Shown in pieces: positions 4,607 through 13,755 of a stretch of DNA of 14,772 nucleotides (its first letter is position 1; every line of letters begins with the position of its first letter). The notes below the pieces were generated by a model. It worked only from the letters and a program-made list of their open reading frames with translations. It had not been told where the DNA came from and did no database searches. The position numbers and the translations under genes were made by a program. The stretch is from a virus (lineage: Duplodnaviria > Heunggongvirae > Uroviricota > Caudoviricetes): IMG/VR virus record IMGVR_UViG_2923323785_000003, one strand, 5' to 3'.

Positions 4607-4780
4607 TATCGCGTCCTCAACAATGAATTTTGTGATGCAGTGCCTGGTGCCTCCAGGTGACGTTAACCAGTTAACAATTAACGCCGGATACAGAGAATCC
4701 ACCCATAACACTGTTTTTGGTTTTAACTGTTCCGCGTGCGCTTCGCCGCATTCACCGCATCACAAGATTCACTTTAAAAA

Positions 4781-4833
4781 CGGCGGCAGAGCAGTCACGG
4801 AGTAAAACTGATACCGCCAAACGTCACCAGAAA
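4781..4833 (-). ncRNA. dicF: DicF small regulatory RNA (ftsZ-targeting sRNA of the dicB operon)
   Basis: Reverse complement of 4781-4833 reads TTTCTGGTGACGTTTGGCGGTATCAGTTTTACTCCGTGACTGCTCTGCCGCCG followed by a T5 run, which matches my recollection of the 53-nt DicF sequence and its terminator. Sits just upstream of dicB on the same strand. Confidence 0.75.
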
Positions 4834-5092
4834 ATTGATAACAGAGGGCGTTGCAGCGGGGTTGTCACTTAAGCGTATGGTCAACCTGACAACTCGGTGT
4901 CCTCAACGGGGAAGGAATAACCCCGCCATACTTACCGCCGCGCCATTTCGCGGATTGCCACAACCGGAAGCGCACGGTCGAATTAAATTTACCGACACCG
5001 TACAGTTAGACGAATTTCGCCGTGCGCTTTCGTGTTGTGTGCCTGCTTTTAACCACGTCAGGCGAGGTGGTATCCTTAAAATCACCACAGTT

Positions 5093-5668
5093 TTAAGGAT
5101 TCATTAAGCAATGTCGCAACCACCAATAAATCCGCTTAAGAACATGAAAATTGATTACTGGTATAAAGAGCTTACAGTTGTTGGCGCTGCGTTGTTTGTC
5201 TTTAATGGAACGTCTTTTTTTGACAGATATCCCGTTGTTCCATTGGGTTTTTTGTCCTCCGGCATCTTTTTTATTGGTTTGGGGGAGTGGATTAATCACC
5301 CTCTCAAAGTGAGATTTATTGGTCCTGGGGTTTGGACTCGTGGATATAATCGTTCTTCGTGCGCACTCGGCATCATCTTCGACATACTTGGTTGTTTCCT
5401 GATTATTACAGGAGTCGTCAAGTTCTTCTGATGTAAAACCGCAAATGGGGCACGTAACGGGAATTTTGAAAAGCGTTTCTCCGGGTTCCAGAACAAAATT
5501 TTCTGCGGTCTGATTTTGCTTCTCATATTTGTGCTCCGCGTCATTGTGAGAGCACATTCTTATTCTGAGTGCCTGTTTAAACTCACTGAAGCTGAGAGCT
5601 TCTTCGCCTTCGGCAAGGCCTTCGAAGTATTCTTCGTAAGCCTTTTCCATGATTGTGTCGAAATCCAT
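5093..5668 (-). CDS. Acidic small protein with CxxC zinc-ribbon-like motif (YdfB-like N-terminus); C-terminal extent uncertain
   Basis: Start MDFDTIMEKAYEEYF at 5668 with a GGTGA Shine-Dalgarno-like sequence; one nt after the stop of the upstream gene. First ~85 aa look protein-like (acidic, CPICGF motif). The remaining ~105 aa are low-complexity and lie exactly antisense to a plus-strand membrane-like ORF, so they may be an antisense shadow. Confidence 0.45.
   Translation of the reverse strand: MDFDTIMEKAYEEYFEGLAEGEEALSFSEFKQALRIRMCSHNDAEHKYEKQNQTAENFVLEPGETLFKIPVTCPICGFTSEELDDSCNNQETTKYVEDDAECARRTIISTSPNPRTNKSHFERVINPLPQTNKKDAGGQKTQWNNGISVKKRRSIKDKQRSANNCKLFIPVINFHVLKRIYWWLRHCLMNP
5111..5431 (+). 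CDS. Putative small inner-membrane protein (3 predicted TM helices), encoded antisense within the leftward operon; alternative to the 3' half of the 5093-5668 ORF
   Basis: 106-aa ORF with three hydrophobic segments (LTVVGAALFVF, VVPLGFLSSGIFFIGLG, CALGIIFDILGCFLIITGVV). Weak ribosome-binding site. Position and opposite orientation resemble sieB in the Rac prophage. Confidence 0.3.
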   Translation: MSQPPINPLKNMKIDYWYKELTVVGAALFVFNGTSFFDRYPVVPLGFLSSGIFFIGLGEWINHPLKVRFIGPGVWTRGYNRSSCALGIIFDILGCFLIITGVVKFF

Positions 5669-5669
5669 A

Positions 5670-5825
5670 TCACTCACCTGAGTTTCTTTCCAGCCAGCGA
5701 CGGGCACCATTTTCGGTTTTAAACGTTTTGCTTTTGGTATACGTCATCGCGGTGAACGTGCCGTCCTGGTTGGGGAACACGCCACATACCAGAGATTCGC
5801 TGTTGCCAAGATCGATAGTATCCAT
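5670..5825 (-). CDS. ydfA: Small protein YdfA-like (51 aa), first gene of the leftward operon
   Basis: Internal Met of the 69-aa ORF with a GAGGT Shine-Dalgarno 5 nt upstream. The 51-aa length and position right downstream of the repressor gene match YdfA (Qin) and YdaF (Rac). Confidence 0.6.
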   Translation of the reverse strand: MDTIDLGNSESLVCGVFPNQDGTFTAMTYTKSKTFKTENGARRWLERNSGE

Positions 5826-5905
5826 GCTGACCTCATTTCCCCTTAACGCCGGGGTAGCGGAACTGTTTGCTGAGAACACCGTGCGGTGTCTTGATGGAAA
5901 TTAAT

Positions 5906-5955
5906 TTAGAATAATCTAACATGATAGGCAAGTGTTTTTTGTTAGGTTAGTCTAA
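5906..5955. promoter_or_regulatory. Left operator/promoter region: two TTAG-N6-CTAA inverted-repeat operator-like sites (5906-5919, 5942-5955) upstream of the leftward dicB-type operon
   Basis: Sequences TTAGaataatCTAAC and TTAGgttagtCTAAC, each a 4-bp inverted repeat with a 6-bp spacer, in the intergenic region between the repressor gene and ydfA-like. The same motif recurs twice in the dicA-dicC intergenic region. A candidate leftward sigma70 promoter (TTGCCT, 17 nt, TAAATT on the minus strand) overlaps site 1. Confidence 0.5.
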
Positions 5956-5993
5956 CAAAAAGAGTGAGCGCAACTAATCACTTGAAAAGAATG

Positions 5994-6401
5994 TTATTTT
6001 ATTGATTTATTTTTACGCGCTTTAAGCATTTCTTCGAAGAGTTTGTTGAAGTTTTCTACTCTTGCGCGCATTTCAGACAGCAAGGCTTCCTGCTCGGAAG
6101 ATGGAAGAGCATCGAATAATTCGATCAATTCTTTGTGGTTGGGAGTTAGCTCTGTTTCCACATGAAGTTCTTGTGCAGGCACTGGTGCCTTGTCTTCATC
6201 ACCAAACATTAGCCATGTAGGTGAGCACTTCAGAGCATCCGCTAAAGCAAACAATCGTTTTCCGACTGGCTGGGTTTCGTCTCTTTCCCATTGTGAAATT
6301 GTGACGTGAGCAACTCCAGCGAGGCGCGCAGCTTCTCGTTGTGTTAAGCGTAATTCTTTTCGTCGCGCCAGAACTCGCTGGCCTAGGGTTCTTGTATCCA
6401 T
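5994..6401 (-). CDS. dicA: DicA-like HTH (XRE-family) prophage repressor, cI analogue without a peptidase domain
   Basis: 135-aa ORF with an N-terminal helix-turn-helix (LTQREAARLAGVAHVTISQWERDE). C-terminal ...SPTWLMFGDEDK...ELIELFDALPSSEQ...EMRARVENFNKLFEEMLKAR closely matches recalled DicA, which is also 135 aa. Divergent from a DicC-like gene. Confidence 0.9.
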   Translation of the reverse strand: MDTRTLGQRVLARRKELRLTQREAARLAGVAHVTISQWERDETQPVGKRLFALADALKCSPTWLMFGDEDKAPVPAQELHVETELTPNHKELIELFDALPSSEQEALLSEMRARVENFNKLFEEMLKARKNKSIK

Positions 6402-6478: not shown

Positions 6479-6709
6479 TTGATGCTTAAAGTTGACGCAA
6501 TTACTTTTTTTGGCAGCAAAACAAAGCTTGCCAATGCCGCAGGAGTGAGACTGGCAAGTGTTGCTGCTTGGGGGATACTGGTTCCTGAAGGTCGCGCGAT
6601 GCGTCTACAGGAGGCATCTGGCGGGGAGCTTCAGTATGATCCCAAAGTTTATGACGAATATCGTAAGACGAAGCGGACGGGGCGGTTGAACAATGAAAAT
6701 CACTCCTGA
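6479..6709 (+). CDS. dicC: DicC-like transcriptional regulator (Cro analogue)
   Basis: 76-aa ORF divergent from the repressor gene. Segment VPEGRAMRLQEASGGELQYDPKVYDEYRKTKR matches recalled DicC; same length as DicC. Confidence 0.8.
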   Translation: MMLKVDAITFFGSKTKLANAAGVRLASVAAWGILVPEGRAMRLQEASGGELQYDPKVYDEYRKTKRTGRLNNENHS

Positions 6710-6986
6710 ACAGGCTCGTGAGGCTCTGGATGCCTGGATATGTCGACCAGGAATGACACAGGAGCAGGCGACGATATTAATCACTGAAGCATTCTGGGCT
6801 TTGAAAGAGCGCCCGAACATCGATGTTCAGCGTGTCACATATGAAGGTGGCGCGGTTGATCAGCGAGCGCTTAGCGTTAATCGAGTGAAGATATTCGAAC
6901 GCTGGAAGGCTATCGACACCAGGGATAAGCGTGAAAAGTTCACAGCGCTAGTGCCTGCAATTATGGAGGCTACCGTCACTGGATAA
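6693..6986 (+). CDS. Hypothetical early-region protein (YdfX-like position)
   Basis: 97-aa ORF overlapping the dicC stop by 17 nt (operon-like), with protein-like composition. No recognised catalytic motif. Confidence 0.55.
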   Translation: MKITPEQAREALDAWICRPGMTQEQATILITEAFWALKERPNIDVQRVTYEGGAVDQRALSVNRVKIFERWKAIDTRDKREKFTALVPAIMEATVTG

Positions 6987-7061
6987 TCTCAGTCAGATTG
7001 CCTTACTCCGAACGCCCACCGCGTCCGTCCCGTACATTCCAGCAACGCATCTGGAGGTAAC

Positions 7062-7541
7062 GTGCGGGTATTACTTCGACCTGTTCTGGTACCGGAACTC
7101 GGGCTGGTGGTCGTTAAGCCGGGCCGTGAATCCATGCCGGTATTCCACAATACCCGGGTACTGGTGGAGCCGGAACCGAAAAGCATGCGTAATCTGCCGT
7201 CCGGGATCGTTCCTGCCGTTCGCCAGCCGCTGGTGGAAGACAAAACATTGCTGCCGTTTTTCAGTAATGCACGGGTAATTCGTGCTGCTGGTGGTGCTGG
7301 TGCATTGTCTGACTGGCTGTTGCGCCATATTAAATCCTGCCAGTGGCCACACGGCGATTATCATCACAGCGAAACCGTTATTCACCGTTATGGTACCGGC
7401 GCAATGGTGTTGTGCTGGCACTGCGACAACCAGCTGCGTGACCAGACATCCGAATCACTCGAGCAACTTGCTCATCAAAACCTGTCAGCATGGATGATTG
7501 ACGTCATCGGTCACGCAATAATCTTTCATGAAACGACCTAA
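7062..7541 (+). CDS. Hypothetical protein, possibly the C-terminal part of a DUF968/YdfU-like protein (GTG start)
   Basis: 159-aa ORF starting at a GTG with a GGAGG Shine-Dalgarno at 7054-7058. Preceded by a 75-bp non-coding gap where replication genes would be expected. Family assignment is tentative. Confidence 0.45.
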   Translation: MRVLLRPVLVPELGLVVVKPGRESMPVFHNTRVLVEPEPKSMRNLPSGIVPAVRQPLVEDKTLLPFFSNARVIRAAGGAGALSDWLLRHIKSCQWPHGDYHHSETVIHRYGTGAMVLCWHCDNQLRDQTSESLEQLAHQNLSAWMIDVIGHAIIFHETT

Positions 7542-9166: not shown

Positions 9167-9242
9167 GGCCCTTTAGCTCAGTGGTGAGAGCGAGCGACTC
9201 ATAATCGCCAGGTCGCTGGTTCAAATCCAGCAAGGGCCACCA
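9167..9242 (+). tRNA. tRNA with CAU anticodon, Ile2-type (ileX/ileZ-like; tRNA-Met cannot be excluded)
   Basis: 76 nt. 7-bp acceptor stem GGCCCTT/AAGGGCC, D-arm GCTCAGTGGTGAGAGC, anticodon loop CTCATAA, T-arm GCTGGTTCAAATCCAGC, 3' ACCA. Close to recalled E. coli ileX. Confidence 0.85.
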
Positions 9243-9342: not shown

Positions 9343-9419
9343 GCGTTGTTAGCTCAGCCGGACAGAGCAATTGCCTTCTAAGCAATCGGTCACTGGTTCG
9401 AATCCAGTACAGCGCGCCA
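9343..9419 (+). tRNA. tRNA-Arg (anticodon UCU, reads AGA/AGG)
   Basis: 77 nt. Acceptor stem GCGTTGT/ACAGCGC (one G-U pair), D-arm GCTCAGCCGGACAGAGC, anticodon stem ATTGC/GCAAT with loop CTTCTAA, T-arm ACTGGTTCGAATCCAGT, 3' GCCA. Confidence 0.85.
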
Positions 9420-9883: not shown

Positions 9884-10357
9884 ATACATATCTGGATTAT
9901 CACCTGTTACGGTAAAAAGTTATTGCTTACTGTTTTTGTGAATGGCATTGCAGCAGCCGGATAATGTCAGTGCTGGCTGACGGTGTGCTGGTGGCGGGTG
10001 TGGTGGTTATTGCTTTCCCGTTGCTGAAAAAGAAAACGCCGGACTGTTAGCCGGGTATCAGTTAGCGGGAGAAATTTTTAAATACTTCACAATTCAGGCG
10101 GTTGACTGTTGTCTGGTTTGCGGGGAGTTTGTTAAAAGAAACTGGCATGGTGAATCCCCCTGTGCGGAGGGGCAATCAGCGAGTAGGTATATGGGATAAT
10201 CGCGGATTCAGGTGCTGGTACTGAATTCACCGGGAGGCACCCGGCACCATGCACTTCAATAGATTCTCTCCACATTATGGATATTCTTTCAGAATATCCC
10301 ACGCAGACTTTGTGTAAATGTTAACAAATGTGCGTTTTATTTGATCTGATTCGCTGT

Positions 10358-13174: not shown

Positions 13175-13755
13175 TGGCATTCAGAATGAGTGAACAACCA
13201 CGGACCATAAAAATTTATAATCTGCTGGCCGGAACTAATGAATTTATTGGTGAAGGTGACGCATATATTCCGCCTCATACAGGTCTGCCAGCAAACAGTA
13301 CCGATATTGCACCGCCAGATATTCCGGCTGGCTTTGTGGCTGTTTTCAACAGTGATGAGGCATCGTGGCATCTCGTTGAAGATCATCGGGGAAAAACCGT
13401 CTATGACGTGGCTTCCGCCGACGCGTTATTTATTTCTGAACTTGGCTCGTTACCGGAAAATGTCACCTGGTTATCGCCGGAAGGAGAATATCAGAAGTGG
13501 AACGGCACAGCCTGGGTGAAGGATACGGAAGCAGAAAAACTATTCCGGATCCGGGAGGCGGAAGAAACAAAAAACAGCCTGATGCAGGCAGCGAATGAGC
13601 ATATTGCGCCACTTCAGGATGCTGTAGATCTGGAAATCGCAACGGAGGAAGAAAACTCGTTGCTGGAAGCCTGGAAAAAGTATCGGGTGTTGCTGAACCG
13701 TGTTAATACAACAACTGCACCGGATATTGAATGGCCAGTAGCACCTATAGGGTAA
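13174..13755 (+). CDS. tfa: Tail fibre assembly protein Tfa (lambda Tfa / TfaQ-like)
   Basis: 193-aa ORF. N-terminus [39 protein letters not shown] and C-terminus [24 protein letters not shown] closely match recalled lambda Tfa. Confidence 0.92.

Follow-up and report, generated by a model that had tools for sequence, protein, structure and literature searches.

When a stop-free reading frame on one strand runs exactly antisense to a stop-free frame on the other, which of the two is the gene? The question arises in a 14,772-nucleotide (nt) stretch of viral DNA (Caudoviricetes; IMG/VR virus record IMGVR_UViG_2923323785_000003), hereafter called the window, where the tail of a minus-strand open reading frame (ORF) covers a plus-strand ORF for a putative small membrane protein. 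An earlier note on this DNA, made from the letters alone, had listed the minus ORF with its ATG at 5668 and a CPICGF motif, and the plus ORF at 5111-5431. All of these features are where it had placed them. It took the segment to be either an extended YdfB-like protein or an embedded superinfection-exclusion-type membrane gene. Each half of this alternative holds in part, but the either/or does not. It is well supported by comparison of homologues that the prophage immunity region holds a new variant of an antisense overlapping pair, with both ORFs real and each under distinct selection, and equally that this is a rare case of full antisense overlap between two selected genes. We put at about 55% the probability that the pair is a mobile cassette whose two genes lie on opposite strands and overlap completely, the tail of the minus ORF being kept free of stops as translational cover.

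The window is a Qin/DicB-type prophage, and the strand conflict lies inside its dicBF early operon. A prophage adjoining rspB in Escherichia coli MB06101 is 100% identical to it, and 787 of 5426 complete E. coli genomes contain at least 80% of window positions 4800-6000. The dicBF early operon of Qin-type prophages comprises ydfA, ydfB, ydfC, a long untranslated region with dicF, dicB and ydfD (PMC5069750).

The plus ORF, which we call TM106, had been said to encode three hydrophobic helices, and two methods agree on them. The Kyte-Doolittle scale places hydrophobic segments at residues 21-37, 41-58 and 82-106, and an AlphaFold2 model (predicted local distance difference test, pLDDT, 72) places helices at 17-33, 42-62 and 85-105. 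Conserved features are the motifs D-x-W-Y-K-x-L and G-L-G-E-W-x-N-H-P, the residue R81, and positions G87/D91/G94/G101 of helix 3. Protein searches returned homologues at 86, 82, 58, 51, 50 and 39% identity, all of equal length and with DxWYKxL and GLGEWxNHP invariant; length and motifs are retained over the range from 86 to 35%. By tblastn, TM106 is present in phage mEp390 and, as gp33, in Burkholderia phage Bcep176, and a genome scan located it in Providencia, Pantoea, Herminiimonas, Arcobacter, Desulfobacteraceae, Nitrospirales and others; its homologues span many phyla. The family amounts to 404 clusters at 50% identity in a profile search, with a usual length of 100-115 amino acids (aa).

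Substitutions at plus positions 1/2/3 number 12/8/34 against homologous locus L113 and 37/23/56 against L005 (loci of the comparison carry L numbers throughout), such that the third position dominates. Plus-frame identity exceeds minus-frame identity in every pairwise comparison, for example 0.82 against 0.61. The plus ORF is therefore a real, conserved membrane-protein gene under ordinary amino-acid-level selection, since motif-bearing homologues occur across many phyla and third-position substitutions prevail. TM106 has no model in Pfam, PHROGs, NCBIfam or PADLOC, against which both ORFs were scanned, and a Foldseek search of its model against viral structures gave nothing at E <= 0.001. The translation start context is moderate for the plus ORF and good for the minus ORF. 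A scan for consensus promoters and terminators found no site ahead of the plus ORF, nor a terminator directly past it.

Two side observations concern individual TM106 copies. In the window copy, residue 20, which lies in the first predicted helix (H17-33), is Glu (WYKEL; window 5169); this position is Ala in 79/80 other E. coli copies and in all but one other homologue (alignments A1 and A2). The rare substitution is possibly impairing. One Arcobacter chromosome (NZ_CP182343.1) carries one TM106 homologue at three places (L021, L022 and L023), which points to either a repeated mobile element or several prophages.

Gene callers and annotators have favoured the longer, minus-strand ORF, as would be right if it alone were real, as an extended YdfB-like zinc-ribbon protein with the plus ORF as its shadow. 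Prodigal-type callers yield 1798 member sequences of the minus protein (P0025) versus 141 of the plus protein (P0001), phrog_35040 is built on the minus ORF, and the records of phages HannyBb and mEp390 (entry mEp390_039) hold the minus ORF only; the Bcep176 record holds the plus ORF. We regard this reading as refuted by the comparison. The coding signature is in the plus frame in every case, a second zinc knuckle is not conserved, and among 80 E. coli copies stops interrupt the plus frame in none and the minus frame in three. The earlier note had looked to homologues in which one frame is repeatedly broken and the other kept, and here the outcome is split: in distant homologues the plus frame and its motifs are intact while the minus frame contains 5-17 stops, and within the prophage clade both frames are intact.

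The Prokaryotic Genome Annotation Pipeline (PGAP) places no gene at window 4607-5567, and in RefSeq neither ORF is annotated in any of 30 listed copies from the 787 genomes; only ydfA, ydfB and the repressor are shown. The homologous DNA of mEp390 (L003 2956-3411, mEp390_039) and Bcep176 (L004 2884-3348, gp33) is annotated on opposite strands. A GenBank note likens the mEp390_039 protein to Bcep176 gp33, but we reject this likeness (BLASTP E = 0.53); the proteins do not match because the similarity lies on the opposite strand.

The two ORFs share one codon register (5111-5093 = 18), with plus positions 1/2/3 corresponding to minus positions 3/2/1. The minus tail is codon-for-codon antisense to the plus ORF, as had been noted, and has 112 stop-free codons where about 105 had been counted. 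Of the 205 aa of the minus ORF, translation likely starts at the internal ATG 5668, the YdfB start, with GGTGAG as its Shine-Dalgarno sequence and the ydfA stop overlapping it (GGTGAGTGATATG). From there, 34 codons (MDFDTIM...KQAL) are identical to residues 1-34 of the 42-aa YdfB of K-12 Qin, as is the translational coupling to ydfA. Homology of the window with K-12 Qin stops at about 5567, where this part is joined in frame to a different sequence, which we call the head; full-length similarity to YdfB is not found, and PGAP calls the window copy 'ydfB, incomplete, missing C-terminus' and flags it as a pseudogene. The idea of an extended YdfB-like protein is partly borne out: these 34 codons are shared, the head fused to them is a different conserved domain, and a tail kept stop-free in many lineages speaks against noise and for a minus ORF that is real and probably translated. 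At some loci the YdfB part is missing: in the Rac-like L112 and L113 the ORF starts MGIQKQ... behind the leader that precedes ydfA in the window, and in L116 it begins MKMKANKQ.

The head lies outside the overlap and possibly has a start of its own (ATG 5557, M52). Its core, F-V-L-E-P-G-E-T-L-F-K-I-P-V-T-C-P-I-C-G-F-T-S, is conserved as protein in the window, L113, L005/L116, L008 and L011. CPICGF is encoded at about 5432-5449, directly beyond the plus ORF stop. In lineages with an open minus frame, the minus ORF always starts 34-105 codons past the plus stop, with heads of three recurring types (Table 1). Substitutions in the head at minus positions 1/2/3 amount to 53/48/72, and to 479/369/600 and 12/7/28 in related head types. 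Position 3 is the fastest; therefore the head is protein-coding in the minus frame and selected as a protein. It is always inherited together with the membrane gene. A tblastn search with two head types against 50,697 phage genomes found only HannyBb and mEp390 and no stand-alone head genes, and in distant homologues no head-like convergent ORF stands next to the TM106 homologue.

The label of zinc ribbon had to be given up. A single knuckle (CP[IV]CG or CPxCGC) is conserved. Neither the sequence upstream nor the tail has a second conserved Cys/His pair, and a Cys knuckle is absent altogether from type-2 heads. Scans of the minus ORF against Pfam, PHROGs, NCBIfam and PADLOC matched only phrog_35040, which is this ORF itself, and phrog_2061, which corresponds to the YdfB part; the PADLOC defence models matched neither ORF.

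At the head/tail junction the signal of selection switches: the fastest position is minus position 3 in the head and plus position 3 in the tail. Tail substitutions at minus positions 1/2/3 are 428/191/260 and 82/35/58, with position 1 (plus position 3) the fastest. Within the 80 near-identical E. coli copies variation is too sparse to tell the frames apart, with 8 polymorphic sites at plus position 3 versus 6 at position 1. AlphaFold2 gives a largely disordered minus protein (pLDDT 45.7), from a shallow underlying alignment. The tail evolves as the plus gene dictates, save for its missing stops, and has no protein-level conservation of its own.

The missing stops are the central observation. 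A stop in the antisense frame arises only where the sense gene has TTA, CTA or TCA. We reduced 266 loci to 32 lineages at <80% identity, among which 13 prophage lineages have the open frame (the window, L116, L122, L202, L204, L206, L208, L210, L211, L213, L214, L235 and L008). The 167 Leu and 60 Ser codons of these 13 do not include a single TTA, CTA or TCA. When each gene's own third positions were shuffled, 42.6 antisense stops were expected (2.0-4.5 per gene) versus 0 observed; the chance of no stop was 0.0015-0.07 for a single gene, and the Fisher combined p was 1e-13. With the codon usage of flanking ORFs as a second null, the probabilities reached 0.12 and were <0.04 in all but one lineage. 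General codon optimisation is no explanation, because these genes contain further rare codons that end in A (ATA, AGA, GGA) and only 26 of the 167 Leu codons are CTG.

The comparison contains its own control. In 16 other lineages, mostly distant and non-enteric and lacking a head ORF, 115 antisense stops were observed versus 125.6 expected, individual examples being 12 versus 12.2 and 17 versus 16.3. The close relative L205, in which TM106 stands directly after the repressor gene and no head ORF is found, has 4 versus 5.1 expected. Stops occur at the frequency that codon composition predicts in the controls, whereas they do not in the 13 prophage lineages. Since stops are at zero with a head ORF and at chance level without one, the open antisense frame accompanies an ORF that reads into TM106 from the other strand. 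Both frames are kept in diverged homologues, each gene with its signature of selection.

It is the codon-for-codon antisense frame that is most prone to long chance ORFs. One could therefore suppose that only the plus gene is real, the tail being a shadow ORF and the head a short independent peptide gene without a nearby stop. The low complexity and poor conservation of the tail and the occasional nonsense alleles would agree with this, and for one gene taken alone an open frame at 0.2-7% is no great surprise. However, 13 open lineages with near-saturated synonymous sites and a combined p of about 1e-13 are hard to reconcile with chance, and the controls without a head ORF do sit at the chance expectation. 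Even a codon bias of the highly expressed type, which is not seen, would not give 0/227, as we estimate from E. coli codon tables. A shadow alone is thus improbable and, on the comparative evidence, largely refuted.

The genomic context of the cassette is constant in kind. In the window, L005-L011, L112, L113, L116 and L122 it belongs to the early-left operon, where it follows closely on the repressor gene; in mEp390, L204, L208 and L213 it is part of the early-right operon, between cro-like and cII-like genes; in L206, L211, L214 and L235 the minus ORF directly follows the cro-like gene. Junctions with neighbouring genes are tight. The minus ORF of the window starts at the ydfA stop and ends 4 nt before a GTG-initiated ORF and the structured RNA described below, and in mEp390, L204 and L208 it stops 17-30 nt ahead of the next gene. 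Relative to K-12 Qin, the cassette substitutes the last 8 codons of ydfB (SSSAKSNG) and ydfC; in the Rac-like L112 and L113 it has taken the place of sieB, with the racR-like repressor on one side and kilR on the other. Modules are exchanged in the slot that separates ydfB from the DicF leader (window 5567 and 5040-5076; L275 2266-2760): its occupant is ydfC in K-12 Qin, sieB in K-12 Rac and here the TM106 cassette. In some prophages ydfC comes after the cassette, and the minus ORF is fused to YdfC (P0032). In Bcep176, gp33 is the sole inverted gene within a long leftward block. The cassette is found in the viable phages HannyBb and mEp390.

The closest positional parallel is sieB. K-12 Rac has the order racR, ydaG, ydaF, sieB, kilS, kilR, with sieB alone on the plus strand among ydaG, ydaF, kilS and kilR, in agreement with the earlier note. 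TM106 has the same slot and inverted orientation, between a DUF1391 gene (ydaF in Rac, ydfA here) and a small RNA (sRNA; kilS or DicF), and in both cases an inverted membrane gene stands beside the repressor within the early-left operon. SieB resembles TM106 in having hydrophobic stretches, in the N-terminal half of its translated sequence, but is 162 aa long versus 106 aa with three helices, and no homology links the two (no Pfam, PHROG, NCBIfam or PADLOC match). The claim of a superinfection-exclusion-type gene is therefore good for a real, conserved gene in the slot and orientation of sieB, and not for kinship with SieB. In addition, the antisense register of K-12 Rac sieB has 7 stops and no covering ORF. 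In phage P22, translation of sieB is switched by the antisense RNA sas, and Esc bypasses SieB exclusion (PMC12197685).

A second parallel is the Pseudomonas phage Fc02, whose lysogenic olg1 is overlapped in antisense by gene 10 of the lytic operon, each of the two giving exclusion (PMC9936078). As proposed here, a lysogen-transcribed gene is set against a lytic-operon gene on the opposite strand in the lysis-lysogeny region. Fc02 is, however, a Mu-like phage with unrelated proteins. Both of its products were shown as proteins from plasmid constructs (PMC9936078), whereas our evidence is evolutionary and not experimental; a stop-avoidance comparison is not reported for Fc02. Position, together with analogy to sieB and to olg1/gene 10, leads us to infer that TM106 may be an exclusion or abortive-infection factor. 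Long embedded antisense ORFs have also been proposed to be translated in E. coli O157:H7, for example ano, an ORF of 186 bp in antisense frame -3 (PMC5960689, PMC9927249). Those cases draw on RNA sequencing and ribosome profiling in single strains, while the present one offers a complete 106-codon overlap, many diverged lineages and an internal negative control.

What might the open tail be for? We favour translational cover because an inverted conserved gene, a co-inherited head, a merely open tail and tight junctions with the neighbours occur together. TM106, which lies alone and inverted within the early lytic operon and adjoins the immunity genes, would be the ancestral member and encode a small inner-membrane protein. 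As is the case for sieB, it would be expressed from the prophage, and by this analogy it would act on incoming phages or on the cell envelope. The minus gene would be part of the early operon, in the order ydfA, ydfB'::head::tail, structured RNA, DicF, dicB. It would begin with the head past the 3' end of TM106, cross TM106 in antisense and stop a few codons beyond its start. Selection would act on the head as a protein, and on the tail just for the absence of stops, so that ribosomes could cross the antisense stretch and early-operon transcription could pass the convergent membrane gene. Cover may help in one of three ways: ribosome-RNA polymerase coupling could be kept through the convergent transcription unit, Rho-type polarity could be avoided over ~450 nt of RNA that without cover would go untranslated, or the operon transcript could be shielded from pairing with the membrane-gene mRNA. 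On induction, the crossing transcript would also be an antisense RNA against TM106. More tentatively still, what is selected in at least 13 diverged lineages may be the act of translation, or mere length, and not sequence.

Several observations weigh against translational cover. The strongest, with regard to generic polarity, is that K-12 Rac has in this slot an uncovered sieB with 7 antisense-register stops. The operon does not, therefore, require cover in general, which weakens the simple anti-Rho version. About 480 nt of untranslated, highly structured RNA also remain between the minus stop and dicB in the window. The conservation of the head hints at a protein function outside the cover model. 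Synonymous sites are near saturation among the lineages, but these are not fully independent phylogenetically. Finally, there are nonsense alleles of the minus ORF, namely K148* and G77* in 3/80 E. coli copies and CPVC*F in L112. The minus ORF is therefore under weaker selection, or under selection that is relaxed in resident prophages, and is dispensable in at least some of them. The L112 allele, in a Rac-like E. coli prophage, is a GGA-to-TGA change at L112 3322-3330 that cuts the minus ORF at the overlap edge in CPVCGF; the tail behind it stays open.

Part of this evidence suits the main rival, a functional protein in two parts, with a CPxCG or PGSV...GW head and a long hydrophilic, basic, disordered tail of nearly any sequence. 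Such a protein could be an antidote or regulator directed against the membrane protein on induction, as Esc is against SieB in P22, and stops would be avoided for the sake of its length and not of translation as such. The head is under protein-level selection and always co-inherited with the membrane gene, every lineage containing a head has a stop-free tail, the uncovered Rac sieB indicates that the operon needs no cover in general, and the sas/sieB switch and Esc bypass provide a precedent (PMC12197685). Yet the amino acids of the tail are not conserved beyond what the plus frame demands, with a per-site difference of ~0.64 at tail plus third positions versus ~0.71 at head minus third positions. 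The predicted disorder of the tail, and head types that vary by lineage and leave the lack of stops as the sole common property of the tail, likewise speak against it. We consider a two-part protein rather unlikely, although sequence data cannot separate it from cover.

Around the minus ORF stop, the operon RNA is structured. The earlier note had described a perfect 10-bp hairpin spanning this stop, and it is there (Table 1); its second arm holds the TAA (5093-5095). It is retained in 6 lineages with partly altered stems. When the minus-strand RNA is folded to minimum free energy, the hairpin is the first element of a strongly folded stretch of 171 nt (-61.2 kcal/mol, z = -3.9). Read as plus-strand sequence, the 3' arm of the hairpin may contain the AAGGA Shine-Dalgarno sequence of TM106 (5096-5100). 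The structured RNA downstream is conserved in L113, L112, L005, L008 and L011; its GCCUG/CAGGC stem shows a compensatory change in Providencia (L011), and its ~25-bp stem looks like an RNase III substrate. A related element occurs upstream of the sRNA kilS in K-12 Rac (L276 3040-3130), where kilS holds the position that DicF has in Qin. An Rfam search of 4700-5750 at a permissive threshold returned DicF alone, leaving the structured RNA without a family. The conserved element at 5038-5076 was considered as coding sequence and rejected, as its indels are not multiples of three. A plus-strand extended -10 promoter candidate for TM106 may be present there (TTAACC at 5049-5054, 16 nt, TGgTATCCT at 5068-5076); the consensus promoter scan did not report it.

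The minus-strand gene set of the window comprises integrase, excisionase, exonuclease, ydfD, dicB, DicF, the PGAP call "ydfB, incomplete", ydfA and a DicA-like repressor, beyond which lies a divergent cro-like gene. At window 6693-7243 and in the neighbourhood (L001 6894-8019), PGAP reports three genes as partial or frameshifted (ydfX/YdaT-like, hypothetical and DUF968). The replication and late-regulation side of the prophage is decayed, and the element is therefore probably cryptic though the cassette is intact. Downstream of the prophage antiterminator gene, Rfam matches IS009 and STnc100, and there are two tRNA genes, for Ile and Arg according to RefSeq.

Table 1. Features of the overlapping gene pair and its surroundings (window coordinates; recurring head types without coordinates)
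Feature	Position	Strand	Description
TM106 (name used here)	5111-5431	+	106-aa three-helix membrane protein; from homologues, third-position substitutions and AlphaFold2
Minus ORF	5093-5710	-	205 aa; likely start at internal ATG 5668 (YdfB start)
YdfB-derived N-terminus	5567-5668	-	34 codons, identical to K-12 YdfB residues 1-34
Head of minus ORF	5432-5566	-	outside the overlap
Head type 1			...PGE..F.IP..CP[IV]CGF.S; window, L113, L116, L008, with a variant in Providencia
Head type 1b			...P L... CPxCGCDL
Head type 2			..FFE.L....PGSV.I......V.L.GW.L; mEp390, Pantoea, others
Tail of minus ORF	5093-5431	-	112 codons, antisense to TM106; hydrophilic, predicted disordered
Perfect 10-bp hairpin	5072-5100		ATCCTTAAAA (5072-5081) pairs with TTTTAAGGAT (5091-5100)
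Structured non-coding RNA	4955-5071	-	between minus ORF stop and DicF; ACCAC/GUGGU, GCCUG/CAGGC and ~25-bp stems
DicF sRNA	4781-4832	-	Rfam RF00039, 72.5 bits; downstream in the operon shared with the minus ORF
ydfA (DUF1391)	5670-5825	-	Pfam DUF1391 E = 2e-27; PGAP-annotated; upstream gene of the operon
IS009, STnc100, two tRNA genes (coordinates given as one list)	13517-13715, 10116-10306, 9167-9239, 9343-9416		

These results expose a systematic annotation error: a widespread membrane family in the slot of an exclusion gene goes unseen by Pfam, PHROGs, NCBIfam and PADLOC. Long overlaps of genes in antisense are contested, in bacteria as in phages, since most candidates rest on single-strain expression data. 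The evidence presented here is evolutionary and has a built-in negative control, as the antisense frame is free of stops exclusively at loci where a conserved head ORF enters it. If our reading is true, the pair would be one of the best examples, by comparative evidence, of a gene overlapped in antisense over its full length in a bacterium or phage. The isolated phages HannyBb and mEp390 provide a system for asking if selection acts on translation itself. The cassette would then represent a previously undescribed way to embed an inverted accessory gene in an essential lytic operon while leaving that operon intact.

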